A stretch of DNA of 64,000 nt. Origin: Takakia lepidozioides. Lineage: Eukaryota > Plantae > Bryophyta. Below, one piece after another: positions 18,752-62,695 of the stretch. The notes under the pieces were generated by a model. It searched no databases and was not told where the DNA came from. It saw only the letters and a program-made list of their open reading frames with translations. The position numbers and the translations under genes are program-made. The stretch lies in contig CM060731.1 of the NCBI GenBank assembly GCA_030704615.1, forward strand, positions 80,476,001 to 80,540,000. The letters run 5' to 3'. Every line of letters starts with the position of its first letter. Within the stretch, counting starts at the first letter, position 1.

Positions 18752-19229
18752 CAAATAGGCCCTTAAGTTTGGAGCACCATAAAAAAAAACCCTCAGTTCT
18801 ACCTTGTGGGAGCCGCAGTGGGTCTTGACCCAGTCCCTATGGCCCCAATTACCTACGGTGAGTGCCAAGACTCCCCAACTATTCCCACCTCGAGTTCTTA
18901 AGCTATTGGCGATTAGTATATCGCTCGCCCCCGCTATGCTTCTACGATCCCACCACTCGCATCCCGACAAAGGGTCTCCTCCTAGGAAGGACTTTTGGAT
19001 TTTTTAGTGTCTTAGAGGTGTCTTAGCCACTCAATTGGCCCACTCCCTTTATTGGTTCCTCACTCAAGATGAGACCACGCATCAATGTTGTAACAAGTGA
19101 AGATCCTAATGTAGCTTTACTAGAAAATGCCTAAATGCAGATGAGGTACCTACAGAACTAGTTTTTATCTTTTGTTTGAAGAATATGTGTCACTTTGATA
19201 TGAAGAACACAGTGGTTTAGTACGCTCGT

Positions 19230-21849: not shown

Positions 21850-23516
21850 CTTGTCCATTGTTATAAAGATCATCTTGATTCATCTTCACCTACCATGCAT
21901 TCGGCCACGCCGACCTTGACTTCTTGTCTAGTCTTGTACCTCTAGTCTGATCTCTTGTTTGTGTTATGTCATGTTCTCGTCCTTGACACTATCTGTGGAT
22001 GGATTCCATCTTTGCAATGATTCGTGGACCAATTTATTTCCGGCCAGAATCCCTCAAGCAGATGAATACGCTCGGGAGTTTCTGAAATTGGTTTATCCAG
22101 CTCGGCGAGAATGTTTCCCCAGTACTAGTCGTATTGTTCCATTCGACCTCTGTAATGATCGTCAAGCATCATTCATTTCGTCCAAAAATGAATTTTTATT
22201 TCATTCTTGATGAATGACTGTTTTTTGGAGGAGTAGTCTCCGACTCCCAAGATAGGTCTCCTTGGAATGGCGTCTGGGTCTCCTTCAGGGAGCTTGGGAG
22301 TCCCGTCAGGATTGGACTTCCACATCTTCACGCTATTGTTTGTTGGAAGTCAATCCGAATCAGTAGCTGACTTCTCGTACTTCATGACGGACCAGCCCTC
22401 TGCATCCTTAAAAAAGCGGAAGACGTGCATCTCCAAAATCCCGACCAACGCCCCCTTTCCATCCAGAATACAGCCGTTTACAAAATTCTTGAAGTCGGGA
22501 ATCTTCTGAATAATCTGTGGAATGAACTGCAGATCTTGCAAGGTCATGAATGACCTCATCAAATCCGAAAGAATGTAGGTGCTTCGTTTCTTTAGCTTCT
22601 TCGAAAGGTAGTTGAAGAACCCGTCGATGTCCTCATGGGTGTGTCCGACCATAAACCCTAGCTAGATCTCTTCAAAAACATCTTTGGCGGTCAGGAGGGA
22701 TAGAAAAGCAAGCATCCATCTATTCTTATTGTCTTTCGCGGAGTTGTCCATTTGCAAGTACAGTCTTCTCGGAAGTGAATGAGCACCACATTTATCTTCC
22801 GGCCTACATGGTTTAAGAGCATCCAAACATCTCAATTTACCTCTTAAAAGTGATTCGAAAAACTCGTTTTGAAGTCGGTAATCAAAAATGTTCCTGGACT
22901 CGTGACAGATTGGCTTCTCCAGCTGGCGCAGACAACGTGCCAAAGAACCAATTGTAAAGTTTGAATTTCCCTTCCAGAACTCAAGAGAATATTGACCGTA
23001 AGCTCCATCACCGTGTCCGTGCGTGACCATTCCCGTTAGTGAAACTGGAAGCTGACCCAATCCAGAAATCATCTTGTTTGGAGTCTGGAGCCTTGGAATA
23101 GCTGTTTTCTTATGATCCATTTTGGAAGATCCAGATCCTCCAGTAAGTATTCTGGTGACAAGAACTCCAACATCGTCCTCTCCCAGTTTGTCATTGAGGA
23201 TCACCTCGTCCGGAATGCAAGCTTGAATCCTCCCCTCGAACAGTGCAGTACCCCCATCTTCACCCAACAGTATGCACTGCAAGTTTTTCCAGTTGTTTCT
23301 TCCAAGTCCTCCGCTCGGATTCTCAGAACTCTTCGATGGTCTGTGGTTTGATTCATCCTCGTCGACGTCAGAAATTTCGGCAGTATACCTTGTCTCCGGC
23401 GTAAAATCAGGATTCATGTCATGCCCTCCTTGATACTCGTTATTCTCCGCATGAATTTCGCCAACATTCCACACCACCGGGGTCCCAATTGCCTCCTTCA
23501 AGGTGTCAGCATCCAT
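21850..23516 (-). pseudogene. Sola-like DDD transposase, disrupted
   Basis: Motifs KMDHKKTAIPR, LYLQMDNSAKDNKNRWMLAFL and F(M)VGHTHEDIDGFF. In-frame TAG at 22662-22664 and an apparent internal deletion near 23125. Confidence 0.75.
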
Positions 23517-23951
23517 ATGTCCATAAGGGGTGGTTTGTGGTCCTAGTTTAATGGTGCTGCTAGATTATTAGGGTTATGGATTAGGGTTATGGCGGGTTAG
23601 GATCATGGTTTTGTGCGATTGGTTTTTCGAATTTCCGATATTCGGGCCTAGTAGACGCTACTCTAGTAGACTAGTCTCCGTAGACCTCTAGACCTCTAGT
23701 AGATCTCCATAAACTCCGGCAGGACGTACCACACGAACCTCGTCTGCCCAGTGGAGGTTCAGACGAGGTTCCTGCGTGTTACTATGCGAAGGCACAACAT
23801 ATGGATGTATTGAGATAGATTTATGTCAGTGCCTCCCATGCGTTGATTTTTTGTTCTGTCTGTATAAAAAAGAAGGTGCGTAGGAGTGCACACGGTGGCC
23901 AAAGATGGTTCTGAGACCGTCGTCGATATCTGTAAGAGGCCAAGGAGATAG

Positions 23952-30149: not shown

Positions 30150-32390
30150 AATATGGCTGAACGAACCTAGAGTGTGATGATCGCGGGATATGCCCCAGCA
30201 TGGATGTGGGATGGAGGCATTGGAGACCTATGAGCAAATGATGTGGGAAGGGTAAAGGCAAACCAGGTCACGTTCGTTTGTAGATGCAATGCGTGTGCGA
30301 GCCTGGCAGCCCTGGAAAAGGGCAAAGAGGCCATGCTGACATCATCAAAGCTGGAATTGTATGAGATGTCATTCCAAACGATACCCTGGTAGACATGTAT
30401 GCCAAATGTGGCAGCATCGAAGCTGCAAAGAGAAGGCAAATACTACTTCCATTGAGCGTTTTTATTTGTCTTCCTAGTGCAGATGCTTGGGTGCAACACA
30501 GTACAACACAATCCCTATTTTATGAACGAGCGTTGATCACGTGGATTTAATGATGGCAGGATTCTTCTTCGACCTGTTTCAGCCTGGTTGCTTTCCCATC
30601 AGACTCGGCCCTGGATTGCTCAGAGCAGAGCTGGCATATTGAGGGTTTTACAGATCCTTCACGATGATGGGACAAACCGCGATCGCAAGGTGTGGTTTTT
30701 TTTTAATGTACGATGTGAAGAAGTTTGTCCATCCTGCAAATGTGGGCTCTTGGCTCTTGGCAAGAAAGCTGGAAAGCAGGTGCACACTCACATTGTCCAA
30801 AGTGGATTCACGCCGAACGTTTTTCTACTCAACACCCTTGTCAACATGTATGTTAAGGGGAGCATCATGGATAATCACCAAGTGTTCAACACAGAATGCC
30901 TCAACGATCTTTGATCACGTGGAATATAATGTTGGCAGGATTTACCAAGCATGGGCGTGGTACGAATGCCTTGGAGACCTATGAGCAAATGATGCGCGAA
31001 GGGGTGAGACCAACCACATCACGTTTGTTTGTGTTTGCAATGCGTGTGCAAGCCTGGAAAAAGGGAAAGAGGTCCATGGCTTTGGAGGCTTTGGAGACCT
31101 ATGAGCTAAGAGGCTTGGAGACCTATGAGCAAATGATGGGGGAAGGGGTGAAGCCCAGCCACATCATTGTGTGCATTAGCAATGCTCGTGCAAGCCTGGC
31201 AGCCCTGGAGAAGGGCAAAGAGGTGCATGGCGATATCATCAAAGCTGGAATTGTACCAAATGTCATTCCGAACACTGCCCTGGCAGCTCTGGAAAAGGGG
31301 AAAGAGGTCCATGGTGACATCTTCAGAGCTGGAATTGTACCAAATGTCATTCTGAGGCATACCCTGGTGGGCATGTATGCAAAGTGGGTGCATCGAGCCC
31401 TGGACAAGGGCAAAGAGGTGCATGGCGATATCATCAAAGCTGGAATTGTACCAAATGTCATTCTGAACACTGCCCTGGCAGCTCTGGAAAAGAGGAAAGA
31501 GGTCCATGGCGACATCTTCAGAGCTGGAATTGTACCAAATGTCATTCTGAGGCATACCCTAGTGGACATGTATGCAAAGTGGGTGCATCGAGCCCTAGAC
31601 AAGGGCAAAGAGGTGCATGGCGATATCATCAAAGCTGGAATTGTACCAAATGTCATTCCGAACACTGCCTTGGCAGCTCTGGAAAAGGGGAAAGAGGTCC
31701 ATGGTGACATCTTCAGAGCTGGAATTGTACCAAATGTCATTCTGAGGCATACCCTAGTGGACATGTATGCAAAGTGGGTGCATCGAGCCCTGGACAAGGG
31801 CAAAGAGGTGCATGGCGATATCATCAAAGCTGGAATTGTACCAAATGTCATTCCGAACACTGCCTTGGCAGCTTTGGAAAAGGGGAAAGAGGTCCATGGT
31901 GACATCTTCAGAGCTGGAATTGTACCAAATGTCATTCTGAGGCATACCCTAGTGGACATGTATGCAAAGTGGGTGCATCGAGCCCTAGAGAAGGGCAAAG
32001 AGGTGCATGGCGATATCATCAAAGCTGGAATTGTACCAAATGTCATTCCGAACACTGCCTTGGCAGCTCTGGAAAAGGGGAAAGAGGTCCATGGCGATAT
32101 CTTCAGAGCTGGAATTGTGCCAAATGACATTCTGAACAATACCCTAGTGGACATGTATGCAAAATGTGGGTGCATCGAGGATGCAAAGGGAGTGTTCGAC
32201 ACTATGGCTGAATGAGATGTGGTGTCGTGGAGTGCGTGCTTGCAGGGTATGCACAGCAGGGACGTGGGATGGAGGCTTTGGAGACCTATGAGCAAATGAT
32301 GGGGGTAGGGGTGAAGCCCGGGAAAAGGGCAAAGAGGTGCATGGGGATATCATCAAAACTGGAATTGTACCATAGTCATTCTGAACACAA
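30150..32390 (+). pseudogene. Rearranged PLS-class PPR gene fragments, including the 30896-32215 ORF
   Basis: ITWNIMLAGFTKHGRG..ALETYEQM..EGVKP, LEKGKEVHGDIIKAG, NTLVDMYAKCGCIEDAKGVFDTM. Frameshifted, with no E/DYW domain. Confidence 0.88.
31201..32165 (+). repeat. In-frame 195-bp tandem repeat x5 (87+108-bp subunits)
   Basis: Units start at 31201, 31396, 31591, 31786 and 31981 and are nearly identical. Confidence 0.95.
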
Positions 32391-35480: not shown

Positions 35481-36149
35481 CCACAAAAACCTCCTGGACT
35501 TATTAAAAAGAGACACGTGTACAGTTTGCAGCAGCACACTAAGTCATGTATGGTAGAAGTACATATGACTGCCAAATGACAGTAAGATGTATCACTTGGT
35601 TCATCTTACTACAGTCATACGTGACCGACCATCATGTACTCATTATATTCACTTGGTTTGCACGACTTAAAGTCATTGCAGTCATATGTATCGTTTATGA
35701 CTACGAGATAGTCATATATACAGTCATATATACCACGATCTTGTTGTAGTGTAAACACACACGGACCGACTCCAACGAGACTGAGACGGTGAAGAGAATA
35801 GTGGATCGGACAGTCACTGTCGCACTATCTGATCCGGTTCTGCAAGTAATCTCCACTGGACAGTTGAGGTTGACATCTGCTACCACAGAGATGGAGGATA
35901 CCGTTTCCCGTAGAGATGGGAAAGAGGAGGAGCAGCCTGCTCAAGGATCCCAACAGCCCTCCCCCCAAAAACGGTAATGCTTTCAACTCCATTTTTCCGT
36001 TTCTCTACATTGGGATTACTGAAATTGAAATTAATAATGAACTCTTATGTTATTCCACAAGACAACAAGCATTACCCTCCAGTCGACTATTCCATTTCTG
36101 TCAATCCAAACGATCTGCATTCCCTTCCTTGGGGACCGAACGGATGCCG

Positions 36150-36850
36150 GCCAGGATACTACGTCCTGGTCTGGGACATCGGTTGCCTTTGTGAGGTTTA
36201 CCTAAAGGATGGAAAGAAATCCCCTCCTGCCACGCAGCCTTGTATCTCCGCAGGGAAATTCAAGTTAGCTACGCGAAACGGTCTTGACGAATTCATTAAG
36301 TGGGTCGTCAAAAAGTTTGCCGTTTGTTTTTGGAATACGGGACCTGAAATGAACGTCGAGACTATCGCCAAGGCTGTGTTCGGGAAGTACTATTCCCAAG
36401 TTAGAACTTACAGCAGTGACAATTCCGTCATGCATAGATCGACATTCAACGAAAAATGGCCTAAAGCTCCAAAAAATCCCATCTACTTTAAACGTCTTTA
36501 CGATATTTTCGCTGAGGAAGACCCGACAGCTTACAAATCCAATACTCTCCTCATCGACACTGTAGACAATATGTACAAGTCCTACTTGAACCCGTTAGGA
36601 CATACCATCTTCTTTCCAAAATATAAAGCGCTCGTGGACCCTGACAGAGATAAGTTTCTACTGGAAGAGCTCAAGCCTTACCTTAAACATGTTCCGGTTA
36701 TCCGGGATGGATGTCATGCCATTCAACGAGCTACATCCGTTCGGTGTTACGAAGGATTTCTTCGAGGACGACCCAACGGTCAAATTTCTTAGAGACTTTG
36801 ATTATAGGTGGCAGAAGTTCCTTAGGAATCACGAGTTGCGTGCCGCTACA
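36150..36850 (+). pseudogene. FCP1/NIF-like HAD domain, copy 1 (divergent)
   Basis: YVLVWDIG..., AVCFWNT, YFKRLYDIF, SNTLLID...YKSYLNP, DKFLLEELKPYL. Confidence 0.6.
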
Positions 36851-42014: not shown

Positions 42015-43365
42015 TAGTTGCGACGTTGAGTTTTGGCGGTCGCTTGAATTTTATAAATTTTATAAATTAAGTGTGACCGCTAATATTTGGTAGTCATGCC
42101 TACTAAAAGAATAAAAAAATACGTGCCACTACAAGTATTAGCAATCACACTTATTAAAAGGATAAATAATTACATGCGACCGTCAAAGTTAGCAGTCAAA
42201 CCAATTTATGGAATTTTTTTTCCCCAAGAAATGATGCAACCGCCAACTCTAGGGGTTGTATCTATTTTTAAAAAAAAAAGTTACGTGCGACTACAAGAAT
42301 TAGCAGTCGCACCAATTTATGATAATATATGTATATGGCAAAATTTAGCTATATATATATATATATATATTCAAAAATTGGTGTTACCGCCAATGTTGGC
42401 GGTCGTACCTATTAAGAAAATAAATAATTACGTGCGACCACAAGAATTAGTGGTCGTACTTTTTTAAATTTTCAAAAATTGGTTCGACTGCCAACTTTGG
42501 TGGTCTCACCTATTAAAAAATATAAAAAATTATGGCGACTGCAAGAATTAATGATCGCACCAATTTGTTTTTTGAAAAATATGCGACCGCCAAATTTTGT
42601 CAGTCTCATGTATTCTTTAAAAAAACGATTACATGCAATCGCTGAATTTTGGGAATCGCACGTATTTTCTTAAAAACAAAATTACATGCGACCGCCAAGT
42701 TTGGACCAGTGTTGGGCGGTTCTTTGGTTTTGGGTGAAAGAACTGCTGGTTCCAGGAATTTCACTGAACCGGGGGTTCTCTAATGGCTATTTTTCATAAT
42801 AACCTGACCTACGTGTTGGAATGAGAGGGGAGGGTAAGGGTAACTGCAGCTATCACATAATTGTGCATAAGGGTAGTTATCTAGGGTCAATCTGAAAATG
42901 ACCTTCAATTATTGTGGGGTTGGATTTTTTGTCATACATGCACATTTTCTATTTAGTTTGTCCATAACAACTTTTTGAATTCAGAACCGGGAGGGAACCG
43001 GGTCATCTCTTAGTTCCCTATATGGTTCTCTTCCCATATACCCAAGCACTCGATTTGGAGGGTAATTGCATGAAAGAACCGATATAGGACATACCCATGA
43101 TAATGTAACTCAAATATATACACCCTCCATCGTAAGTTTTGTAACTCTCCATATTTTGAAAGACCCGCCCTGGAGGTTCTCTATTTACCTTTCACAAGAT
43201 ACAACCTACCCTGCACGTTCTACCCAAAACCAGAGAACCGCCCAACACTGGTTTGGACGGTCGCACATGTTTTCCTTAGAAACAAATTACATGCGACCGC
43301 CGATATTGGCGGTCACAATTATTTTTTTAATTTTTAATTACGTGCGACTTCCAATATTTGGCCGT
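42015..43365. repeat. Array of degenerate ~55-60-bp palindromic units (GCGACCGCCAA...TTGGCGGTCGC), probably a TE subterminal region
   Basis: TACRTGCGACYRCMA...TGGYGGTCGYA recurs more than 10 times, separated by A/T runs. Confidence 0.7.
42707..43250. mobile_element. hAT-type MITE
   Basis: TIR CAGTGTTGGGCGGTTCT / AGAACCGCCCAACACTG with 8-bp TSD GTTTGGAC (42699-42706 and 43251-43258). Confidence 0.9.
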
Positions 43366-44599: not shown

Positions 44600-44878
44600 T
44601 TAAAAAAAAAAAAAATTCTGAGTTTAGAAGCTTATCCTTACTTGTCGTCCTCAAACAGTCTGCTTCCTCAATCAAGTCCTCATTCTCATCAACTAGTATG
44701 TCATCGTCTGCTTCAACTAGCTTATAATCAACACGGGCATCACATGGCCAGTTTTTGTAAACCATTACCAATTTGTCCAGATTATCTACTCGGGTAGACA
44801 ACTTCGTCTAAGAGTAGTCATCACATTTGCCACGAAGGAAATTCTTTCCATCTCAATCTGCGAACCAAGTATTCCAAG
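44600..44878 (-). pseudogene. hAT transposase C-terminus (dimerisation domain); continues at 56652-56900
   Basis: Removing the retroelement restores W..HETRFPNVGFL..QILGILGSQIEMERI....NVMTTLRR..L.VDNLDKLVMVYKNWP.D. Confidence 0.8.
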
Positions 44879-44882
44879 AATT

Positions 44883-45223
44883 TGTCAAGTTAAATAAGCA
44901 CAGTGTGAAAACAGCTAGAATAAAACTAGTTATTTGTATTTAACACTTGGATTTAGGTCAAGTGTTAAATCAGGTGTCAAGTTTAGTTTGACACCTGGTC
45001 CGTCTTATCTTCACGAGAGCGGCAGTCGCGCGGCTCATCTTTCTCGAGTTGAGCCTGCGCGACCGAGCTCCTTCATCGCTTCAGATATGAGTGTGCTTAT
45101 GATGGGAGTGTAGGTTGTTGTGGGGTGGAGTCCCCATAGCTTGGGGTGCCCCTGGCTCGACTACTATTTGAAAGAGTGATGATGGTTTTGGTTTTCCAAG
45201 TGTGTTCGTTGGTTTTTCTATCA
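44883..45223 (+). repeat. 5' partial LTR (segment B, 341 bp)
   Basis: Matches 56221-56561 with a single substitution seen (G at 45170 vs C). Confidence 0.95.
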
Positions 45224-45237
45224 CTCGAGAAAGATGA
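45223..45237 (+). promoter_or_regulatory. Self-priming primer-binding site (Tf1-like)
   Basis: ACTCGAGAAAGATGA is the exact reverse complement of LTR 45035-45049 (TCATCTTTCTCGAGT). There is no TGG-initiated tRNA PBS. Confidence 0.75.
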
Positions 45238-45449
45238 CTCTATCTAGTTTTCCAGTGCTAAGCTAGATATTATGTTTTTGTTTTTTAAGCACTATGATAA
45301 TATAGCTTGGTCACAGGGATTAGAACAGGAGGCTTGAGATGTTGTTGCGATTTTCTGTCAACCTGTGGATACATCTAAGAGTGGGGTGTGTAGGCTGCGC
45401 TGCTGACTGCTTGGCTGGATGAGAGCCGTGCACCGCCGTAGGTAGGGAA

Positions 45450-45790
45450 GGCGTTAGCTGATCTGAAGAATCGAGCTGATTCTGCTGTCTGCACCAGCAA
45501 GAGAAATCTGGAGGATGGTACCGACCAGGCAGAGAATCTTGGCTCGACTATCCGACAGCAGGCTAAGAATCTGAAAGAAACTGTCCTTGGCTCCACATCC
45601 GATGCCAAGAAGGGTACTGAGAGTAACGTTGGTAAGGCCAAAAACTCCACCGAAGGGTGCTAGCAAGGATTTCCGTTCCACCATATCAGACGCTGCGCAA
45701 ACCAGTCAGGAGAAGACAAGTGAAGCTGCCAGCAACGTCCAAGACGTTGTTTCAAGAGGCACAGGAGGCCTTCAGAAGGGGAGAAGAAGG
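45450..45790 (+). pseudogene. Captured LEA-like hydrophilic protein fragment
   Basis: ADLKNRADSA...DQAENLGSTIRQQAKNLKETV...DAKKGTESNVGKAKNS / TISDAAQTSQEKTSEAASNVQD; A/K/E/T/S-rich and helical in character. Confidence 0.5.
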
Positions 45791-45859
45791 TGAAGGATTT
45801 GGTAGCAAAGATATGAGCGCACATCGTGAGGCATTACGCAGGCTGGTGGAGTGCATGGG

Positions 45860-46319
45860 TTCTTCAAAACAAGTGCTCCAGGCCAGTTCCAAAAACAGAG
45901 CAATCCACGAAAGAAAAACCAGTGTCCATGCGAGATTCGTTCTTCTTCTGTGCAGTCAGTGAACCGAAGGTCTTCAGAAGCACGTCTTGGTCATCAAAAA
46001 CACCTGCAGTGTCGTTCCAAGAAATGATGGTGTTGAACATACCATCTCCCCTGAATGTGATAGATATTGCCGGGCAAATGACCGCTTGAAACTGCGCTTG
46101 AAAATCCAGCAGACAACGCTAGTGCATTGCTCTCCGAAGCAGGAACGTCGTCTGGTCAGATGTCTCCGCAATGTAGCTCAACCAGTTGTCGAAATCAGTA
46201 TTGACAGGCTCGTCAGGGTAGGTGGAGTCGATCTCAGCGCAGGTGCTCCCCATCCATGCCACGAAGGCCAGCAGAACCCACAGGCAGGGTCGCCCCGACA
46301 TTTGTCTCCCATCGAACAA
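45860..46319 (-). pseudogene. Captured pectin methylesterase fragments (catalytic core deleted)
   Basis: Signal-like LWVLLAFVAW...DFDNWL, then ITFRGDG.FNTIISWNDTA...LKTF joined directly to GSLTAQK....MDTGFSFVDC..FGTG. Confidence 0.8.
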
Positions 46320-47278
46320 CCTGGTAGAGGAAGACAGTCTTCAATGAAAGCCCCCCATGTGATCCCAGCATGAGGGTGAAGAGACAGATGTGCGAGTCGT
46401 GCTCGAAATTGTCAATCTTAGTGCGGAAAGTAGGGATTGGGCTGTTGTCAATTGGATTTTTCGCCATGAAGATATCAATGTCATTTGCAGTTATCCATAA
46501 GGATTCCATATTGATGCCGTCATTTGCCGTGACAAGAAATGAAGGGGAGGGAAGTCGCCTGTAAATCATGGGAGTGATGCAGGTAGACTTGGGGTCAGCT
46601 TGAGAGAGGTTGAGTGGACAACCTTTGAGAGCAAGGGCTGGGAAGGGCTGAGCAGAACCAGGAGCTGGTAGGAGCTGACGGAGCAGCACCAGGAGCAGGC
46701 ATCTCTGCTGCATGGCTTTGGAGATTGACGAGCATGCAAGCTGCTCATGCGCAACCCTTTGATCAGGTCTTTGATCGGCCAAATCGGTCAACACCCCACA
46801 CCACCTCCTTGTTCCTGCTTGCTCGCGCAGGCTTGGCCATCGCTGCCCTCGTCTGCGTCCGCCTTGCCTCTCTCTCTCCCTGGGCGATGGCGAACATGAA
46901 GCCCCGTGAGAGCAAAGACCCGGAGTCAGCATAGTCGGGGAACGGCCTCGGGAACCCGTAGATAACCAGGGAACAGGGAACCTAGACAAGTATTTTTTTT
47001 TTTAAAAAGAAAAAAAAGGGGGCCTTTTGATCTAATTTAAATGTTTAAAGAGCCTGGTTGGTCATATCTTTGTCAAATGAGCTCCGTTTGACTCAGTTTT
47101 TGAGGGGATAGCTGCAGAAAGGGGAAATCTACCTACCTAGACCTGGTTTCTGTTTTTGGGACTCTGCTAAAAATCTATGGAATTTTAGAGTGTGAGTGTG
47201 CCATAAAAGATCCACAATCCTGTCTCTAGAACCTGTGCTGGTCTATATGAGAGACAAATCTGTGGATGTACTCCTTGC

Positions 47279-48028
47279 ATGGCTGGGGGAAATGAGGACG
47301 TAATTGAAGGGCAAGTCTCTTCTCTTAGCCTGTGCACACAAGGGGACAGGATTTATGTTTCCCAAGGAACTCAGACTGATTTGAGTGGAGAACAGTTGGA
47401 CGAGTTGATTGCATACTGGGAGTCAGGCATTAACAGTAGACAACAAACTGCTGTAGTTGGCATTGAGGGCCTCAATATCGCCTTGGACAGTCAGAACTCG
47501 GTTGGAGCCAGCAGTTCTGCAGCTGTAGGTGAAATACCAAAGTGGGTGAAAGCTAGGCTTGGAACACAGCCAAAGACAGCCCCGGGGACCAAGGTGTTCA
47601 GCCACAAGGCTGTGGTGTACTGGAGCAGAGGAGCAGGAGCTACACAAGTTTGTGCAATCAGACATGGTTGCAGCCGGATACGCTCTACACAGGGCAACCA
47701 CGAGCGGGGGTTCATCAGCAATGACATGTTTGTTGTGCGTGAAGGAGATGCAGTCATTCGCAATGAGGACACCCGCAACCGTCTCAAAGCTTTCGAGTTG
47801 AGAGACTATCAGACCCTACCTTTGTTTTCTTTAGTGTTCAGTGAGCGGGAGATAGGGGAGTATTGCTTTGTCTCTACCTGGCAGAAAGAGGAGGAGGGTT
47901 GGTTAGAGCGAGCTACTGTAGCTTGGGACAAGGTTAGTGGCAGGTTTCTGGACATAGATATACCTCCTACACCTTACCATCATGCAGAGCGAGGCACTTT
48001 GAGAGAAGTCTGGCAGTTGATAGCATAG
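47279..48028 (+). CDS. Intact 249-aa extra ORF upstream of gag, unknown function
   Basis: Uninterrupted ATG-to-TAG frame with globular-looking composition. No motif recognised. Confidence 0.5.
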   Translation: MAGGNEDVIEGQVSSLSLCTQGDRIYVSQGTQTDLSGEQLDELIAYWESGINSRQQTAVVGIEGLNIALDSQNSVGASSSAAVGEIPKWVKARLGTQPKTAPGTKVFSHKAVVYWSRGAGATQVCAIRHGCSRIRSTQGNHERGFISNDMFVVREGDAVIRNEDTRNRLKAFELRDYQTLPLFSLVFSEREIGEYCFVSTWQKEEEGWLERATVAWDKVSGRFLDIDIPPTPYHHAERGTLREVWQLIA

Positions 48029-48763
48029 ATCAGGATTAGATCTTGCTTGGTCGGGCTTCTATTCTTCCCCTCCATCTCTGTACTATTTTCATTACCTTGT
48101 ACTTGTAGTTGCCAAAGCCTCTCTTGGTGGAGGCCAGTCAGTCCGGGGTTTTGGGCTGGGATATTCTGCAGGATCAGCATTGCAGCTGGATTTTGGTGTG
48201 GGGGTGTTGATGTTTTGATTTCTTGTGTTTGGATCCCCCCCAACACCTGCATGCTTGACTGTGCGCCATGTTGGTTTTGTGTGGGCGCTTGCTTTCATAG
48301 GGATTAGGCCGGATTTGATCACGGTCAATCCTAGAGTATGCTATCGGTGGTGAGGCTGGAGTGATGACCAGCAAGACCACCAGTGTTTCTTCTATGGTGA
48401 GGCTGGGTTGATGACCAGCCAACCATAGGAGTTCTTGCGGTGGATGCAGGTGCAGGTGCCCTGAGCCATTGGGATATGACCCTTAAAACTGCAACAGGTG
48501 CCCACCCGTGTCACTATTAGATTAGTATTAGAGCCTTATAGTGTCACGTGGAGGAGGTGCACATTGTGAGTGTCATTACGGAGTTACCCAAGGGTGGTGA
48601 GGGGAGTACGGCTACAGGCAGTAACAGTGAGAGTGGGTTCACAAGACGAGGTATTCGGTTCAGACCACCTTCACCGCCACCCTCAATTACTGTAGAGTCA
48701 GACACAGACTCGGAGGCTTCATCAATAGGTGTGCACTTTCATTCGCCATTGTTGTGGGACGAC

Positions 48764-50148
48764 ATGGAGGAGATGTATGGAGCTACCAAGGGGCCTCGTA
48801 GGTACTCTGGAGCTGTGGGCACAATCGAGTTGGATGACTTTATCCAGAGTTCGACAGCTGGTGTGATTTGCAGCAGATGCGCAATCCACAGCTATTCACC
48901 CCATTCATGGTGTGGAAGGGACTGTTCCAGCATTTGGAAGGCCCGCCTATGGACGATTACCACGAGTTCAGGCGAGGACATGAAGCAGAGATTGAGGAGT
49001 GGAGGATGTATTGGTCACCTGACTACGTCTCCATTACTCGAGGCACGACGCGACCAGTAGCTGCATCGGTACCAATAGCTCCCACTGCCAGCACTAGTAG
49101 TGGAGCAGGTAGTGCTGGTACTTCTGCAGGTGGTACCAGTTCAAAAGGTGCTACTACTCCTCCTGCCACAACTGCAACACATGTGCCTAGATTCAACCCG
49201 GTGGTGGAGTTCTTCCAGGAGTTGCGGAGGAACTACCAAGGTGTACGGACAGAGAAGCTGCGAAGTTTGCAAGACTTCCAGCGCAAACCCAGTGAGAGCC
49301 TGCGAGAGGCGTACACTCGTATGAGGCGCTTGATAAGTGTGACCCAAGGGGTTACTGAAGCTCAGGCAATCCAGTTTTGGTATGGAATTCTGGACAAGGA
49401 GCTCAGGAGAAGGGTGCGAGATGCAACCCTGTTACAAGCAGCCCAACCCACATTAGCAGATGTGTTTTTGCTGGCTGAGCAGATTGAGCTCAACATGGTG
49501 GAGGAGCGAGTTGTTACAATTGGATTTGGCAAGGACATGCCTGTACGGGGCACAGCTGTCAGCCCACAAGCACAAGGGACTGCCCAACAGCGTGGTCAGG
49601 GGGGCAAGGTTGCCCAGCCCAAGTTCCATGGAGCTTACAGGGGACCTCAGGTGCAGAGGCCCGTGGCATCTTTTGCAGGCCAACAGCAACCAGGGGTGAT
49701 ATGTTGGACATGTGGAGGACCCCATGTCAAGAGAGATTGCCCAGAGAGTGGCAGAAGGCCGGCACAAGCACAGCCTGCACAGTTACAGTGTGGGCATTGT
49801 GGCAAGTATGGGCATGGAGATGCCCAGTGTTATGACTTGCATCCTGAGTTGCGCCCAGGCCAGTTCCAAGGGAACAATGGTGGCCGGGGGCGAGGTGGAC
49901 CAGCCCAGAGAGGACGAGGTGGTCGGGCACGAGGTGCAGGCCAAGGGCAAGCTCAACATGGCCAAGGACGCGGAGGTCAGGGCGTTGATCAAGGCATGGC
50001 CAACCGGCTTCAGCAGCTAGAGCAGAGGCTCGCTGCCATGGCTATAGCTCAGGCGGTACCGGCTCCCAGGCGGGATGGTCCACCTCCTGCTCCTGAGGGA
50101 GGAGATATGGGAGGCATGGGATTATGTGCGGAGCAGCACTACCATTAG
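48764..50148 (+). CDS. gag: Gag with two zinc knuckles (frameshift ~48845; the frame may begin upstream ~48548)
   Basis: QRKPSESLREAYTRM capsid-like motif, CWTCGGPHVKRDC, CGHCGKYGHGDAQC and an RGG-rich tail. Confidence 0.88.
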
Positions 50149-50699
50149 AGTAGGTGGAGTCTGCTGCAGCTGTGACTCGAGGAGCAGCACGAGTTCCTGA
50201 GCCACGAGGTGCAGAGGTGGAATTGGATCCACAGCGTGGGGAGGCAAGCCGTCAGGCGAGGCTTCCTCAGTCATTCACATTGGCGGAGACTGTGTCGACG
50301 CCATCCATGGCACCTAGTTCTTGCCCGACTGTTACCGAGGCGGAGGTTACTATGCCATTGGGGAGAGCTACACGTGCAGCATTGACTCCTGCTGCCAAGG
50401 CTAGTGCGGCCGGTGTGTTATTGGGGGCAGCCACCTCTGTGTGTCAGGCCCCACTGTTCTCGGCAACGATGATTGCGACGCCGGGGGTGAGACCAGCTGC
50501 AGTGTTCAGATTAGCAGCAACACTCTGTGAGAGTGGGGAGGTCACTTCATCTTCTGCGGAGTTAGTGGAAGGTGTAGTGGCAGATGGATCCTCGGATTTG
50601 AGGGTCAAGACTGCCACGGCTGCGCCATGGCAAGTTGCAGCTGCCAGGTTGACGGAGCTGCCAGCTAGGCCAGCCATTGAGCGCGCCATGGTGACACCT

Positions 50700-51130
50700 G
50701 GAGTTGTCTTGTTAGACAACCAGGGAGGCATTTTCACTTTGAGTGGACCGGCAGGCAAGAAGTACCGGCCACTGCGGGTCTTGTTGGACTCAGGAGCTCA
50801 GCCACTGATGTTGGGCAGAGCTGCTATTGCAGGTTTGGGCCTCATGGAGGCGGATATGGAGCCTTGTCATTTCCAGATACAGACATCTCTGGGAGGATCA
50901 GAGCAGGCTCGCGGCATGACACGACATCAGTTGGCTATTAGACTGCAGCCGGATCATCCTGTAGATGGCTCAGTGATGCGAGCCAAGGCCATTGTGACAG
51001 ACGCGGTCTCTTACGATGTCCTCGTTGGTGGGGCAGTGTTATACCCCATGGGCTTCACCCTGGATTTCTGGGAGGAGTCAGCATCCTACAGGCCTGGATG
51101 GCAGTCAGGGGATGGTCGCCGTGCACAGCT
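50700..51130 (+). CDS. Aspartic protease domain of pol
   Basis: VLLDSGAQ catalytic motif and YDVLVGG. Confidence 0.85.
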
Positions 51131-51489
51131 CTCTGTGACATTCATTGGGGGTATTGCGCTGCCCAGCGGGGCAAGATGCCAACACTAGCCGCCTTCACAG
51201 CTGCCGTTAGTTGGCCTGGAGAGTTGCTGGAAGGCAATGCCCATGCAGAGGATGTGCCACCTCCAGCAGAGCAGGATGACATGCATGGTATGGCGGAGTT
51301 GCCTGCCATGGTTGCTCACACTCCGTTGTGGGGTACGAGCAAGATTTGCAGCAGCTGCTGATGGACGGGTGCAACAAGCTTGGGAAGAAGCTTTTGTACC
51401 GTCAGGAGAGGAGGAGAGTGCGGTGATTGCACCAGGGCCACCTCAGTTGTTGCCATTGGACACCACACCTCTTGTGTGGCAGCGGCCGG

Positions 51490-52440
51490 ATGAAGGCATT
51501 TGCCTTCTGGACTTGTTTGGCGGGATCAGCACCGGATTGGCTGCTGTGCTACAGGCAGGTGTGCGGGTAGGCGTTACTGTATGTGGAGAGGGATGAGACT
51601 GCACGACGCGTCTCACTGCGCCATGTGGCTCAGTTGGTACAGCAGTATCCTGACTTGTTGCATGTGTCTGCAGTTCGTGGATACCACAAGCCTTGCCAGC
51701 AGACATTTCCTTGTGGGGCGCAAGATTTGGAGCAAGTTGGCTCCATTGATCTGATAGTGGCAGGTTGGCCCTGCCAAGGGCATTCATCAGCCAGGCATGG
51801 CAATGGATTGCGAGACTCGAGGACGGGTCTGTTTTGGGAGATGGTGCGGATTTTGCGCTGCTTGCAGCTTCATCAAGCTGTATCTCAAGCATACATCTTG
51901 GAGAATGTACCACTGATGGGTGATTCTCGGGCCAGGGTGATGGCCAGTGTGCATCAAGTCTGGTCGTGGCTTGGGTCAGCAGTGTTTGCTGGATGCAGCT
52001 GCAGTGGGGTCACGGGCTCATCGTCCACGACTATGGTGGACTAACTTGATGCCACCCGCACTGCTCAAGCGTGCATTTGATGGGGTGCAGCGGCCAGCAC
52101 ACCTCACCGTGGATGGCATTTTGGACACAGGAAGGCAGTCTCAACGTGTGAGACACGATGACCGTTCGCCTTTGGCAGTGGTCAACAGGGTGGGTCAACC
52201 ACGAGCAGCATTACCTACACTGCTCAGCTTCCCAGGATCCCATGCTTTTCGGGATGGTGGACCTGGCCTCCTGTGGGATGCTCAGTTGCAGCAGTTAGTG
52301 GAGCCTAATGCCGACGAGCGAGAGCGGGCTATGGGGTTTTCCACTGGGACCACGGCGGTGCCTTCTCTTTCTGAGGCATCACGTCGTCAGGTGTTGGGGC
52401 AAGCAATGGATCTCAATTGCTTGACCTGGATTGTCAGCTT
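51490..52440 (+). CDS. DNMT3-like DNA (cytosine-5) methyltransferase domain within pol (frameshifts ~51575 and ~51980)
   Basis: Motif I LLDLFGG, II YVERD, IV DLIVAGWPCQG, V RTGLFWE, VI YILENV, VIII AHRPRLWWTN, IX ERERAMGF..GTT, X RRQVLGQAM. Confidence 0.93.
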
Positions 52441-52899
52441 GGCTATGGCTGAGCAACGTAGAGTGCGGAGTGCACTTCCCTTGACGGTCTCTCTGCCTAC
52501 CGAGACGGTACAGGCAGCGAGTGGGGGCGAGCCGGTGAGGACCACGAGGTGTAGACATCCATGGCACATGTGGGAGGTGCTCGAGGTTCAGAGGGAGTTG
52601 GCAGCGAAGGCAGCTGTGATGGATGAGGTTGGGGATTCTTCTCGGGATGAGGAGGTTCTCAATGATGAGATGATGGGGCAGGATGAGGCCTTGTCATTGA
52701 CTGAGCAGGAAGGGGTACTGCTCAAGAGGTTGCAGCATAGCAACCACGGGACGCGTCCTCTACCTCTAAGCCCACTGGACTTAAGGTTGCAGTTACGGAG
52801 GACAATTGGGAGCCTGACATTGGACCCATTGTCACCGGAGGAGAGAGACGACGTATACGGCGGTTCCTGAGGGCTTATAGGAATTGCTTTGCCTTCAGT

Positions 52900-55873
52900 T
52901 TGAAGGACTTGGGAGCACTGAAGGGTCAAGAGATCCGTATTGAGTTGGCCACTGACACGCCAATCTTTCGGAGACCCTATAGATACAGTGACATGGAGAG
53001 GTCTTTGATTCAGATGAGGACTCAAGATCTCTGGGAGGCAGGTTTGGTGGAGCTCTCTGGTGGAGAGTATGCTTCAGCCACAGTGATGCCAGCTAAGAAG
53101 GATGTCTATGGCAATTGGACAGAGAGACGTATGTGCGGTGATTACCGGCCTGTAAATCGTCAGACCAAGTCCGATAGGTATGCCATGCCAACACCAGAGG
53201 AGATCTTTGATGCCATTGGGCATTCCAAGGTCTTTAGCACGTTGGATTTACGATCCGGATATCACCAGTTGCCGATCAAGGAGGCGGATAAGCAAAAGAC
53301 GACATTCTGGGGGATCAATGAGCACGGGAAGGATTGCCTATACCAGTGGCGGTTCTTACCATTTGGGCTTAAAAACGCTCCCGCTGAGTTTCAAAGAGTC
53401 ATGGACAGGATTCTAGCAGGGGTGGAGTTTGCTCGGTGCTACATAGATGACATCATCATCTTTAGTGCTACGGTGGAGGAGCATGAGAGACACCTTCAGG
53501 GGGTATTTGAGCGCTTAAGGACGCACGGATTGAAGTTACATCCGGGCAAGTGCAAGTTTTTCCACAACCAGATTGAGTATCTGGGTCACATGATATATCC
53601 TGGAGGATTGGGGGTACAGCAGACTAAGGTAGAGTCCATTGCACAGGTTCCACGCCCCACGGATGTGAGCCGAGTTCGAGCTTTCATGGGGTTAGCAAAC
53701 TATTACAGACGGTTTGTTAAGGGATTTAGTGCCATTGCAAAGGCTCTAACCAAGCTGACCAAGGTGGACCAGGAGTGGCAGTGGGAAGATGAGCAAGAAC
53801 AAGCTTTTCAAGAGCTCAAGGCGAGGTTGACCTCGGCGCCCATCTTGAGACGACCTATCAGGGGGCGTCCTTTTCAGCTGCATACAGATTGGAGCATGCT
53901 GGGGCTTGGAGCGGTGCTCACACAGGTGGATGATGAGGGAAGAGAGTTCGTAGTGGCTTATGCTAGCCGCTCGAACAATGCTGCAGAGTCTAAGTATAGC
54001 TCATATGAGGGAGAATGCTTAGCTGCAGTGTGGGCCGTGGCACACTTCAGGTGCTATCTATACGGCAATCTCTTCACCCTTGTCACGGATCACCAACCAC
54101 TCAAGTGGTTGATGGAGTCAGACAAGCTTACGGGGAAGCTTGCACGGTGGGCACTCATCCTTCAAGAGTATGACTTCCAGGTGGTGCATCGACCGGGTTT
54201 GGTCAATCGCAATGCAGATGGGTTGAGTCGCAATCCATGCACGAGCCAGCAGGATGACACTGGAGCTCGGTGGCATGGTGAGACGGACGAGGAGATGGTG
54301 CCCGGATGGCATGCATCTGCATTTCTGTGTATCTTGGCAGCGGAAGGCCAGGTTGGACATGCAACAGGGATGACTGTAGATCAAGTGTCTGAGGACCCTG
54401 AGGCCAGCAATGAGCAAGGTGGCGCCAAAGATATACATGAGGATTCAGTTGTGTTGGACTACCTCCGCACTGGAGACACGGCAGCCACTGTGACTGCCAA
54501 GGAGAGGGATCGGATCCTACAACGAGCCAAGAGGTTCAAGTGGGAGGGGACACACCTGCTCCGAGTGTGGGAGGATGGTCGAGTGAGGATTGTGCCTCAC
54601 CCAACACAGCGGGCACGGTTAGTGCGGCATGCCCATGAGGAGTTGGGGCATTTTGGGGTGCGACGCACTCATAGTCTACTGCAGGGGCAATATTGGTGGC
54701 GTGGTATGCACACAGAGGTGCAACAATTTGTGGCTAGGTGCATGGTGTGTGACAGGGTGCGTGCTTCATTCAACGCCCCTACTCCACAATTGCACCCTCT
54801 TCCGATCATGGGATTGGGCTACAGGTGGAGTCTTGACTTCGCAGGGCCGTTGCCACTGACCATGCGCCACAACAAGTACGTATTGGTGATGGTGGAGCAC
54901 TTCTCCAAGTGGATTGAATTGGTTCCATTGCCTGATAAGGCTAGTGAGGGAGCTGCGTATGCATTCCTGGATTGTGTGCTTAGCCGATTCGGTGCTCCAG
55001 CTGAGGTACTCACGGACCAAGGGAGAGAGTTCTTGGGGGAGTTTCAGGCTTTGTGTGAAAGGCCTTGATAGACCACCGCACCACTTCTCGGGATCATCCT
55101 GAGGCCGATGGCTTGGCAGAGAGAGTTGTTCAGACAGTAAAGAGGGGTTTGCGCAAGTATGGCTTGCAGAAGCACACCTAGGAGATTGGGACCTTCAGTT
55201 ACCCTGGTTAGCCATGGGCTACAGGTTCAGCAAGCAAGCATCACTTGCCTCCTTCTCACCATACTTTCTTCTCTTTGGCCGAGAGCCGGATTTGCCTACA
55301 TCCATTCGCAGAGAAGCTGCTACAGTTCTTAACCTTGACGGTCCGGACGTGTGGGCACGTGCATGTGAGCAGCGTGCAGAGTTGTTCAAGAGAGTCATGC
55401 CCATGGCTTTTGAGAACCTTGCCATTGCACAACATCGTGATACGTTGAGGTATGCTACCATACGTGGTGGGGGCTATCGTCCTGGGGTTCGGAGATTCAA
55501 CCCTGGTGACTATGTCTATCTGCAGCAGACTGCTCCTACGACCCTGGATGTGACTGCAGGACGTGTTATTTTGAGGGTTCGAGAGGTCTTGCCCTCAGGC
55601 GTCTTGGTCTTGGAGGGTCGGGATGGCATAACTTGGAAGGACCATGTGCGTAATTGTGCGCCATGTCACCTTCTGAATGTCGATGGCAGGATTGACCCAA
55701 ACCTGGCAGTGGTATCTGCAGGTTTGAGGTGCATGTTGTGTGGGTCTGCTAAAGGGGCAGCCACCATGCTGGTGTGTGATCGATGCTCTAGAGGTTGGCA
55801 TATGGGATGCTTGACTCCACCTCTTGAGATGGTTCCAGATGGGGATTGGTTATGTCCACATTGCATTGGATAA
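52900..55873 (+). CDS. pol: RT-RNase H-integrase-PHD (frameshifts ~55060 and ~55180)
   Basis: RMCGDYR, LDLRSGYHQ, LPFGLKNAP, YIDD; HTDWS, TDHQPL; H..H..CMVC, SLDFAG, LTDQG; C-terminal C4HC3 CMLC..CDRC..WH..C..CPHC. Confidence 0.95.
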
Positions 55874-56133
55874 TGGGAGTGGATACAACCATGGAAGGCT
55901 AACAAGAAACGCAAGGCCCAGCTACTAGAAGACCTTGAACACGCGAGATCCTGCCTCAAGTTCACAGATTGCAAGACGGCGACTAACGATGGGGCTACTC
56001 TTGTACCCGACCTCTTGGTCTATAGAGTTTGAGTACAATAGGGACAGTGATAGAGGACTTAGTACGGTTGTGGCTATTTCATCTTGTAGCTATCTGGAGG
56101 TAGAGGGACCTAACCACCAGCTAGGGGGGCGAT

Positions 56134-56647
56134 TGTGGCAGACTACTTTATTGTGCATATATGTGTGGTGTGGTTTGGACAGCGATGTAGTTGTGTAGCG
56201 ATATGTATGCGCACGACAGCTGTCAAGTTAAATAAGCACAGTGTGAAAACAGCTAGAATAAAACTAGTTATTTGTATTTAACACTTGGATTTAGGTCAAG
56301 TGTTAAATCAGGTGTCAAGTTTAGTTTGACACCTGGTCCGTCTTATCTTCACGAGAGCGGCAGTCGCGCGGCTCATCTTTCTCGAGTTGAGCCTGCGCGA
56401 CCGAGCTCCTTCATCGCTTCAGATATGAGTGTGCTTATGATGGGAGTGTAGGTTGTTGTGGGGTGGAGTCCCCATAGCTTGGGGTGCCCCTGGCTCGACT
56501 ACTATTTCAAAGAGTGATGATGGTTTTGGTTTTCCAAGTGTGTTCGTTGGTTTTTCTATCATTGTGGCAGACTACTTTATTGTGCATATATGTGTGGTGT
56601 GGTTTGGACAGCGATGTAGTTGTGTAGCGATATGTATGCGCACGACA
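56134..56647 (+). repeat. Complete 3' LTR (A+GC+B, 56134-56561, 428 bp) followed by a second copy of A (56563-56647)
   Basis: TGTGGCAGAC starts directly after the PPT and the LTR ends at CTATCA. The 85-bp segment A is identical at 56134-56218 and 56563-56647. Confidence 0.93.
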
Positions 56648-56929
56648 AATTTGACAAGAACCCAACATTAGGGAACCGTGTCTCATGCTCAAACCAACAT
56701 TCGTTGGATCAAGTTTCTCAACATTGTCAATGAGAACTCAGCCTTCAATAAGCCCTCATTGGGCTCCTCAGTGGAGGCAGCTAATATACCAAAAAATCCA
56801 TGTGAGGGTAGCTCAGGAGTGGGTGGATGCGGAGCTATGCCACCTTTAGGGTTCAAGTGGTCAATCACAGTGGTCAATAGTGACAAGAATACAATTGAAT
56901 CATATTAGAGAGAGAAGACTTCGGCCTAA

Positions 56930-60050: not shown

Positions 60051-62299
60051 CCCTGATTGGCAACCAAAACTTATAAGCGGTGGTGCCAGAGAGCCTCCTC
60101 CTCAACAATTCGGTCCTCTTACGCCGTACCACCAGCTTGCAGGACCTCCTCGCTTGTCACCGCCTGTCTCCAAGTCCTCTATATAATACCCAACAAATAA
60201 CAACAATGTTTCAATCTCACTAACCTCTAAAGTGTCCAAAGAAATCCATCTCCCCCAGCTAACCTTGTCACAAACTTGTCAATATTGCAAAACAAGCACT
60301 CAACATCATATTCTACAAGCAACTGATTGCAACAAGCACCAAATATGGGCAAGAGGAGCACAAAGCAGCACTTGAAACAGCCTCCTTGCTTGATGCCGCA
60401 TTGAAAGCCAACAAACCACCTTCATTGCGATCTCCTCCGTAGCAAAAATCAAAGCCAAGAATCTCACCAAAGCTGCCGCCGTCTCTACGCTAAACGCCTC
60501 CACATTGATACCTGAACGACGATACCAGCAACCGAGTTTGAGCGACAAAACAAATAACAACATTGTCATGGTTTTAGTCATGGTTATCTAGAATTACCTA
60601 CTTCTAGTTAACTAGGACATTTTAGATATTTATATTTATATTTTGTGTGTTGGGACTTCATTTGGTCTCACATGCCAAGTGAGATGTCGAGCCTCACTTG
60701 AGACATGGAGATAGGTTTTCCCCTTGTGAGTGTTGAGGAGGCTCATCTTCTTGTAGTTGAGCCTCCATGAGCTTCTCTCACCTCCATAGCTCTAGGTATT
60801 GAGAGGGAATGTGTTGAGGGCTTTGTAGGGTGGATTCCTTTAGCAAAGGTGCCCTTGGCTTGACTTAGTTTATGTGATAGAGTGGATTTCACTTGGAAGG
60901 ACTAGGGCTTGTTCTTCATGTGATTGCTTCATGCTTTGAGAGCTTTCATTGTCTTCTACTTCTCTCATTTCTCATCTCTTATCACTACAAGAAGATCACC
61001 TTATGCTTGTGAGTGCGGAGTGTAAGGATTAGTTTTGCACTTGTATTTTAAAGAGGTTGAGAGCTAGGAGAATTTAGCTCTTGTATCACAAGGCTTGCAA
61101 GGGGTTGCAAGGAAAGGTGCTCGAGTATTGCATGCACCAAGGAGTTGGAGAGCTTGAGAAGAAAGCTCTTGAGTCACAAGATTTTGCAAGGATTGTAAGG
61201 AGGAAGTCTTGTGTGTGTGGAAGCATGGATTCTAGGGTTTGAGAATCCTTTGTATGCATTATGGAGTCGATGGTGTGCGCCATGGCTTGTGGAGAGTGAC
61301 TAAAGGCTTGTTAGTGCTCATTTCACTATCAAGCTAGGGTAAAGCAAGTTCAAAGTGTGGATGTTGTGGAAGAGAAGCCAAGGAGCTATATATGCTTGGG
61401 CTTGAAGACAACAAGGGCAAGCACTTGGAGAGCACTAAAAAGCTCAAGAGGTTTTGAAAGGGAGCATGTGAAGAAATCTTCCAATCATGGTGGTGTGGAG
61501 CCAAGCTTAGGGTGCCATTGGAAGGGCTTGGAGAACATGTGGTGGGAAATCCTTGAAGGGAAATCATCATTCAATGTATGCATAGCTTCACCATAACTAT
61601 GTAATGTGACAAGAGGGGGAGGCAATACTTGGCTATTCATGCTCTTGGTAGTGCGAGCTTTGTGGTGGATAGTTGACCAAGCAAGTGGTGCATGTGTGGA
61701 ACATGCTTGCTTGAGTTTGTAAGTTCAAGTTTGAGAAGGGGAGCTCTTGAACTAGCAAGAGGTGAAGGCCTTTGAGATCCATTTGTGTGTGAAGTGTGGA
61801 GAGGTGTTGATTCATGTTATGATGAAGGAGATCAACACATAGGCCAAGAGGTCATGAAACATGCATTTAAATGACCACGGGGAGCACATGGATGATGGAT
61901 TGGTGCAAGACCCCAAATGAGGCATATGGCGTGAGAGTGGGATCCAAGGCGGATTGCTTGGGAGCATTATTGTAAGTGACAAGCATTGCTCCTACACATT
62001 GAGATAATTTGTGTTGATTTGGAGCAATTGTCAAGTGATGAGGAGACAAATGCATGATTGCTCGGCAATGGAGATATGGTAGTTTGCAATCAAATCCCAA
62101 GGACTAGAAGGGGGATTGATTTGGTGGACAATGACTTGCAAGTTGAGTTGGACCACTCTTGGTTGCACATTGGGGTGGAAAAGAGCAAGAAGATGCCTCT
62201 TATGACCACCTAGAGACCATATTTTTGCTTGAGTAGAAGCATAGAAGTCAAGGACTTGCATTCTAGCTCTTCATTACAAACCCTAGTAGTGTATGCTCA

Positions 62300-62695
62300 G
62301 ACTATACCTCTGTTAGTATACCAAACAGGAGCTTGTCCCTTTGACTATACCTCTGTTGAGGTATCACCATATGTGAACCATAATGTGAGACTATACCTTT
62401 GTTAGTATACCAAACAAGAGCTTGTCCATTTTACTATACCTCTATTGAGGTATCACCATATGTGAACCCTAATCAGCTGAGACTATACCTCTGTTAGTAT
62501 ACCAAACAGGAGCTTGTCCCTTTTACTATACCTCTGTTGAGGTATCACCATATGTGGACCCTAATCAGCTCAGACTATACCTCTGTTAGTATACCAAACA
62601 GAACCCTCATTTTCAGACTATACCTCTGTAAAGGTATCATCAACATAAGGGACCCTAGCAATCCCAGACTATACCTCTCTTAAGGTATCAACAGT
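62300..62695. repeat. Tandem array (~90-bp units of two ~45-bp hairpin subunits)
   Basis: Core GACTATACCTCTGTT(G)AG(G)TAT occurs about 9 times. Units start at 62300, 62389, 62481 and 62573. Confidence 0.9.

Follow-up and report, generated by a model that had tools for sequence, protein, structure and literature searches.

A probable self-primed Gypsy lineage with split terminal repeats in Takakia lepidozioides

Introduction

How is reverse transcription primed in a retrotransposon whose 5′ repeat is not followed by a tRNA-type primer binding site (PBS), and how do the ends of such an element arise? The question is raised by a stretch of 64,000 nucleotides from Takakia lepidozioides (contig CM060731.1, positions 80,476,001 to 80,540,000; hereafter the window), in which two related elements were recognised. 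Priming by the element's own RNA is established for Tf1 (PMC6317226, PMC7175516, PMC4600332, bioRxiv 10.1101/2022.12.06.519325) and a survey of plant elements predicted it for 12% of them, chiefly Tcn1 and TAR (PMC6317226). Self-priming and the A-B-A-B repeat layout have each been published separately. In the literature searched, which excluded Repbase and subscription journals, no work was found that links self-priming or an internal cut site to the present lineage, or that combines the two.

Results

Two elements of one Gypsy lineage

Element 1 (44883-56647; the features of both elements are on the forward strand except the palindrome, which has no strand) encodes gag-like, protease-like, cytosine methyltransferase, reverse transcriptase (RT), RNase H, integrase and PHD regions in broken frames. 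The gag-like and protease-like region (48104-51188, several broken frames) carries CCHC-like and DSG motifs and matches protein P0022; no Pfam match was obtained for it. The C5 cytosine methyltransferase region lies in split frames at 51206-52432 (PF00145, E 3.1e-12; tblastn with P0022 and P0009). RT, RNase H, integrase and a C-terminal PHD finger occupy 52741-55873, a region without a chromodomain match. The order protease-RT-RNase H-integrase is that of Ty3/Gypsy (Metaviridae), and among solved structures the RT is most like that of Ty3. A cytosine methyltransferase within pol, here PF00145 between protease and RT, is a feature of the streptophyte Gypsy-DNMT3 group, and DIRS-like A-B-A-B repeats are a second one. 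Element 1, a Gypsy element with a cytosine methyltransferase and a PHD finger, fits this group.

The closest named proteins belong to liverworts (the best at 65-76% identity), followed by Klebsormidium and Closterium. PF00628 or PF00145 is present in many relatives, and the closest full-length ones list PF00628 and no PF00385. In a quick, midpoint-rooted tree of 37 RT/RNase H rows, which held no Tf1 or Tcn1 reference, element 1 was placed beside Calypogeia and Marchantia proteins, in a clade of 27 rows that includes Klebsormidium (SH-aLRT 99) and is separate from the chromodomain and SH3_Tf2 rows. A scan of viral contigs gave no match.

Element 2 begins with a repeat A at 60565-60984, its left end inferred from TGTCA and with no B before it; its 3′ end falls outside the window. 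The original prediction treated the two elements as members of one family. They do belong to one lineage, with gag regions 76.8% identical, but blast aligns their repeats over short stretches only (25 nt; one weak match of 64 nt for element 1). Since gag can be aligned and the repeat barely so, element 2 is taken to represent a second family of the same lineage. Its leader contains tandem repeats of about 92 bp (62283-62691).

Elsewhere in the window, a PPR gene (30194-32372) shows recent internal expansion, with five copies of 195-bp units that are mostly 97% alike. A more distant RT region (19204-21147) has 27-31% identity to the lineage proteins. Cytochrome P450 pieces (10462-12534), a DUF7869 ORF (22665-23564) and a NIF-like phosphatase ORF (35914-36789) were also seen, and dispersed repeats of about 50-100 bp at 42077-43348 are possibly subterminal repeats of a DNA transposon.

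Repeat layout of element 1

Between two 4-bp target site duplications (AATT at 44879-44882 and 56648-56651), element 1 has the order A1, PBS, internal region, polypurine tract (PPT), B1, GC, A2, B2, that is A-internal-B-A-B. Repeat A1 (44883-45223), which comprises the promoter part, R and U5, begins with the TGTC half of a palindrome and is 99.7% identical to A2 (56221-56561). Contigs of other copies from the same organism likewise begin at 44883. What had been described as the 5′ LTR ahead of the PBS is therefore not an LTR; it is repeat A, one half of the LTR of reverse transcription. The left half of that LTR is B1 (56132-56218), which directly follows the PPT (56123-56131, kept in relatives). 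At the B1-A2 joint lies the palindrome GACAGCTGTC (56215-56224), organised as GACA|GC|TGTC. It is thus inside the LTR, its halves are the two ends of integrated copies, and it is proposed to be an internal att site. A2 is followed by B2 (56561-56647), the right end of the element, with terminal GACA. At the A2-B2 joint (56557-56567) the end at which the minus strand starts appears to have been joined to that at which the plus strand starts.

The repeats of element 1 are near-identical (A 340/341, B 87/87) despite the broken gag, protease, methyltransferase and integrase frames; recent mobilisation in trans, or indels introduced by the assembly, could account for this.

The PBS is complementary to a segment of the element's own repeat

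Both PBS start at the terminal A of the 5′ repeat and neither opens with TGG, so that the absence of a TGG-type site claimed in the original prediction is true of both elements. The terminal A can be assigned to either end, which leaves a one-base ambiguity in the register. The predicted pairing was likewise exact. In element 1 the reverse complement of the PBS (45223-45237) is found at 45035-45049, with 15/15 matches. In element 2, where both partners were said to have changed and still to pair, the reverse complement of the PBS (60984-60996) is found at 60745-60757 (13/13). The 12-nt hairpin loops of the two elements differ at four positions, and all four changes are mirrored in the PBS. In both elements the last base of the complementary segment, a T, adjoins TGAGCC. 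The segment lies within a hairpin, as claimed, with the correction that the hairpin of element 1 starts at 45025 and not at 45026 (45025-45063; element 2, 60737-60766).

When the repeats were shuffled (approximate dinucleotide shuffle), a 12/12 match to the PBS was reached in 0/300 cases for each window element. The motif GGCTCA-N8-16-TGAGCC occurs only three times within the window, at 45032, at 56370 (the 3′ copy) and at 60740. A rule-based scan of 1,528,994 bases (the window and 79 related loci, both strands) returned 17 rows, of which 14 are boundaries between repeat A and PBS in elements of this lineage and three are unrelated; inside the window it returned the two known PBS sites and no others. 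A T-to-C variant at 45041, within the primer segment, was seen in contigs of two runs from the same organism, which at that place do not extend to a PBS.

Priming by a host tRNA or tRNA half, with the match to the LTR as a by-product or as a pairing of another kind such as dimerisation, appears very improbable. The PBS lacks TGG and overlaps the terminal A of the repeat, and the four PBS types in the lineage differ at several of 12 positions, each matching its own LTR. No tRNA genes were found within the window, and an Rfam search of 44800-45500 gave nothing at gathering score (one match, E 0.31, far below it).

Primer and PBS change together in relatives

The 79 related loci were collected in a metagenome scan. 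Of 16 5′ copies in the main relative family, 13 have their best PBS match in the same register, and 11 of these 13 pair at 10-12 of 12 positions. The primer segment is absent from the remaining three (L002, L024 and L038), whose 5′ repeat A lacks the hairpin together with the segment and is followed by an intact PBS; the 3′ copy of L002 retains the segment. The loss in these three was possibly caused by deletion at the hairpin after insertion. Primer and PBS are altered together in a subfamily consisting of L053 and L012. L028, in the same register, represents a fourth family: its primer and its 3′ arm are distinct, and its match to the PBS extends over 16 nt.

Covariation across the family LTRs was examined in an alignment of 14 sequences, made up of elements 1 and 2 and of 12 relatives whose hairpin is intact; L002, L003, L024, L038, duplicates and L028 were left out. 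In the primer/PBS helix 94.8% of cells are paired, and compensatory changes on both sides were observed in 7/11 pairs. The whole 17-pair structure is 93.7% paired compared with 26-56% in slid controls; the 12 aligned relatives are close kin, and the shuffle control therefore overstates independence. Copying of the primer into the next PBS, as in Tf1, should produce covariation of this kind; in Tf1 about half of the cDNA retains a copy of the PBS (PMC11042837).

The length of the PBS match varies among copies from 12 to more than 20 nt, and longer copies of the LTR are found within the PBS of L058 (about 21 nt) and L011 (22/24 pairs). At L077 (3361-3878), the 3′ A is followed by the PBS and by the reverse complement of A(1-180), which ends with GACA at the flank. 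The direct and inverted copies of A differ at 12/180 positions, which argues against a library chimera. L077 is an aged record of a polymerase that continued past the LTR end and entered the primer segment in the exact register. Either fold-back of plus-strand DNA or the copying of an unusually long primer could have produced it.

The tRNA-independent self-priming put forward in the original prediction is supported by the same register in four families, the covarying pairs, the longer LTR copies in the PBS and the fold-back at L077. Self-priming of reverse transcription by LTR-derived RNA of the element itself is thus considered highly probable.

Predicted transcription start and the role of the hairpin

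The PBS core shared by the relatives is 12 nt long. A TATA sequence is located 29-31 nt upstream of the first A of the primer in 5/8 sequences checked; none was found in the 45 nt before the primer in either window element or in L039. By analogy with the TATA spacing in relatives, transcription is predicted to start at A45037 and A60745, inside the hairpin, which would give 13-nt primers (45037-45049 and 60745-60757). For element 1 this differs from the original prediction, which put the start near 45035. A start at 45037 removes the 5′ arm of the hairpin, which is therefore probably not part of the priming structure.

When RNA folding was begun at the predicted start, the primer/PBS duplex formed in 6/6 elements folded, element 2 (from 60745) among them. 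When the upstream arm was included, the primer segment was held in the hairpin; in the unconstrained fold of element 2 with this arm the hairpin formed (z -0.23) with no long-range duplex. The energies of hairpin versus primer/PBS duplex in the window are -23.0 versus -18.3 kcal/mol for element 1 and -17.9 versus -16.7 kcal/mol for element 2. Because the segment is hairpin-bound with the arm and duplexed with the PBS without it, the hairpin is read as a cage. In the two settings that keep the upstream arm, the 3′ copy and plus-strand DNA, it is predicted to hold the primer-like sequence.

The same hairpin could be read differently. An LTR-derived primer might come from the 3′ copy, as a cleaved or terminated RNA end in A2 or from a second RNA, the hairpin presenting the primer or marking the cut, and the RNA 5′ end would then have no part in priming. 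Retention of the hairpin in all four families, its stability in the window, at least equal to that of the primer/PBS duplex, and the variable length of the PBS match are in keeping with such a source, as is L077, in which the segment was copied back to the very start of A. Fold-back of plus-strand DNA, however, explains L077 equally well, and the PBS core of the relatives stops at 12 nt, where the TATA spacing places the start. A primer from the 3′ copy is accordingly judged unlikely, and priming by the RNA 5′ end is the preferred reading.

A conserved U5 motif, GGCTYGAC (45154-45161), emerged from the folds as a candidate pairing partner of the bases just past the primer. L028 shows matching changes in this pairing; the energy of the helix is no better than in shuffles. 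In six sequences, 12 flanking duplexes of the kind found in the Tf1 'pretzel' were evaluated. For two of them 10 or fewer of 200 shuffles were as good (3 and 10), and for the remainder 15-108 of 200.

Additional short hairpins are present in repeat A upstream of the predicted start (44938-44997 and 60675-60700); those of element 1 have arms of 12 bp and 10 bp.

Ends and forms of inserted copies

Inserted copies start with TGTC and end with GACA (TG...CA ends) and are flanked by 4-bp duplications. Duplications of 4 bp were found in 11/11 elements with both ends (nine exact, two with one mismatch), and none of the 11 gave a 5-bp match. In the main relative family 3′ ends could be read at 41 loci, which correspond to 33 separate insertions. 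The terminal form is B in 20 of these, B-A-B in 11, B-A-truncated B in one and B-A followed by an inverted A in one. All 15 distinct 5′ ends begin at A, and B before A was seen in 0/15. The palindrome was found in the window, in the main relative family and in L029, and with one change in L028. When B1 and B2 were compared in nine elements, to see whether each cycle makes B2 anew from B1, the element's own pair was the best match in two, tied in two and lost in five.

Chance matching or an assembly artefact has a negligible probability as the source of these observations. The relatives do come from short-read metagenome assemblies, and L028 resembles a collapsed repeat. Nevertheless, loci that share an insertion flank agree in their terminal form in 7/7 groups, target duplications flank the forms, and no shuffled repeat reproduced the PBS match.

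Since the PPT adjoins B and the PBS adjoins A, standard reverse transcription would yield B-GC-A at both ends. In the window and in most relatives, the A|B joint consists of the C at the end of the repeat and the A that follows the PPT. It reads as the right cDNA end joined to the left cDNA end, to the base. Errors at the joint, an insertion in L002 and an extra G (a retained PPT base) in L008, resemble those of end-joining.

Could the split ends form without a free circle? Self-priming would stand in that case, and head-to-tail cDNA dimers, or a splint or strand-jump step, would precede cutting of the palindrome by integrase. The strict absence of B before A (0/15) is easier to reconcile with a directional process than with a symmetric circle. 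From a two-LTR circle that is symmetric, A-B-A-internal-B would be expected as well; it was not seen among the 15 5′ ends, and this asymmetry counts against the circle. For A-B-A-B tyrosine-recombinase elements a splint or strand-jump step has been proposed; the rve integrase and the 4-bp duplications of the present element do not point to a tyrosine recombinase. The match of the joint to the predicted cDNA ends to the base, with its insertion and retained-PPT errors, also speaks against a route without a circle, which is regarded as rather unlikely. Joining of the two cDNA ends, probably as a circle, is retained as the preferred reading.

An internally deleted short member (L060/L061, 9653-12630), in which A and PBS stand directly before a partial RT, ends in B and has a near-exact 4-bp duplication. 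The proposed cut site (56213-56224) has an adjacent CG and contains CAG/CTG. It is a matter of speculation that the element's own methyltransferase might bias the choice of palindrome through methylation there.

Discussion

The observations can be arranged into a model which, taken as a whole, is considered likely, with less confidence than self-priming by itself: the first 12-13 nt of the element's own RNA prime reverse transcription, and integrase cuts the palindrome inside the LTR, probably in a circle. Transcription would start at the A inside the hairpin, and the RNA 5′ end, freed of the upstream arm, would pair with the PBS. By analogy with Tf1, in which the primer is cut after nt 11 (PMC7175516), RNase H would cleave just ahead of TGAGCC and free the 3′ end. 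The primer would then be copied into the plus strand, which would keep PBS and LTR in step and explain the covariation. The layout shows that PPT and PBS delimit an LTR of B-GC-A. Its two cDNA ends would be joined at A|B, probably as a circle, and a single cut at the B-GC-A palindrome beside the PBS-side repeat would produce A-internal-B-A-B with the TGTC and GACA ends and the 4-bp duplications of inserted copies. No other form would retain a 3′-terminal R repeat. A-internal-B, devoid of this repeat, would result from cutting at both palindromes or from a one-LTR circle. That form needs no circle, and recombination between B1 and B2 after insertion could be an alternative source of it.

A wider claim is advanced tentatively, at somewhat less than even confidence. 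A widespread streptophyte Gypsy lineage may have gained self-priming independently of Tf1/sushi and moved its integrase site into an LTR palindrome; it may require a circle with joined ends, so that only the permuted A-internal-B-A-B provirus transposes again. It would then be an LTR element that uses a DDE integrase and passes through a DIRS-like, circular life cycle. End-joined cDNA would be the productive route, with a 10-bp target for integrase, and the DIRS-like repeats of KnitGypsy-Dnmt3 would be explained. A probably independent case of self-priming would be added in a Gypsy lineage without a chromodomain. In practice, LTR-finding software can be expected to set the element ends wrongly, because A1 and A2 resemble LTRs and the target duplication flanks B2.

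Comparison with known systems

The streptophyte Gypsy-DNMT3 elements, with KnitGypsy-Dnmt3 among them, resemble element 1 in combining a Gypsy pol and a cytosine methyltransferase with DIRS-type A-coding-B-A-B repeats (PMC5890265). The layout of KnitGypsy-Dnmt3 is given in a figure legend, with no mechanism for it, and the account of the element there does not describe a PBS, a priming mode or a target duplication (PMC5890265); the window lineage, by contrast, is found in a land plant. Klebsormidium proteins share the clade of element 1 in the quick tree and are not necessarily copies of KnitGypsy-Dnmt3.

As in Tf1/sushi and plant Tcn1 elements, the PBS directly follows the repeat, shows complementarity to roughly 11-13 nt of the LTR and carries no tRNA signal. 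Tcn1 elements have a chromodomain and 5-bp duplications in 100% of cases, and the way they were detected gives them a full LTR at each end (PMC6317226), whereas the present elements have a PHD finger, a methyltransferase, 4-bp duplications and split repeats. Neither an integrase chromodomain, nor a 5-bp duplication, nor terminal LTRs bounded by PBS and PPT were found, and membership in Tf1/sushi/Tcn1 was rejected on the absence of the chromodomain, the 4-bp duplication and the split repeats. The three-duplex 'pretzel' of Tf1 is not clearly present. The main text of the plant survey mentions neither Klebsormidium nor Marchantia (PMC6317226). Self-priming outside Tf1/sushi was also predicted for the TAR (Houba/Osr-1) Copia elements, which differ from the present ones in Copia domain order, ordinary LTRs and 5-bp duplications (PMC6317226).

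Other Gypsy groups were considered. Troyka, which has CG...CG ends and a 3-bp duplication and is restricted to animals (PMC12440569), was excluded by the TG...CA ends and 4-bp duplication of the element. The non-chromoviruses Phygy and Selgy, with PBS for tRNA-Trp or tRNA-Ala, are alike in having a 4-bp duplication and were excluded by the lack of a TGG-type PBS.

In PAT and Ngaro, the A-B-A-B repeats form the integration site at the B|A joint. The same split direct repeats, A-coding-B-A-B, are seen in SymbioDIRS-Dnmt3 (PMC5890265) and other A-B-A-B tyrosine-recombinase elements. Element 1 differs from these in its DDE integrase, protease, PBS, PPT and target duplications. DIRS, PAT and Ngaro were excluded by the rve integrase and the 4-bp duplications, and no recombinase family was found in nine element ORFs scanned.

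For the proposed cut, the nearest parallels are retroviral. In foamy virus, 2-LTR circles are cut by integrase at a palindrome (PMC1180852), and two-LTR circles, long considered dead ends, are reported in HIV-1 as no more than a reserve route (PMC4372172). In both viruses, as in the model, integrase cuts a palindrome of circular cDNA before integration, and there the palindrome is the LTR-LTR junction, so that a normal provirus results (PMC1180852, PMC4372172). In the present lineage, by contrast, the palindrome lies inside the LTR, away from the joint of the ends; its cutting would yield a permuted provirus, and a start with a full LTR was seen in 0/15 of the 5′ ends.
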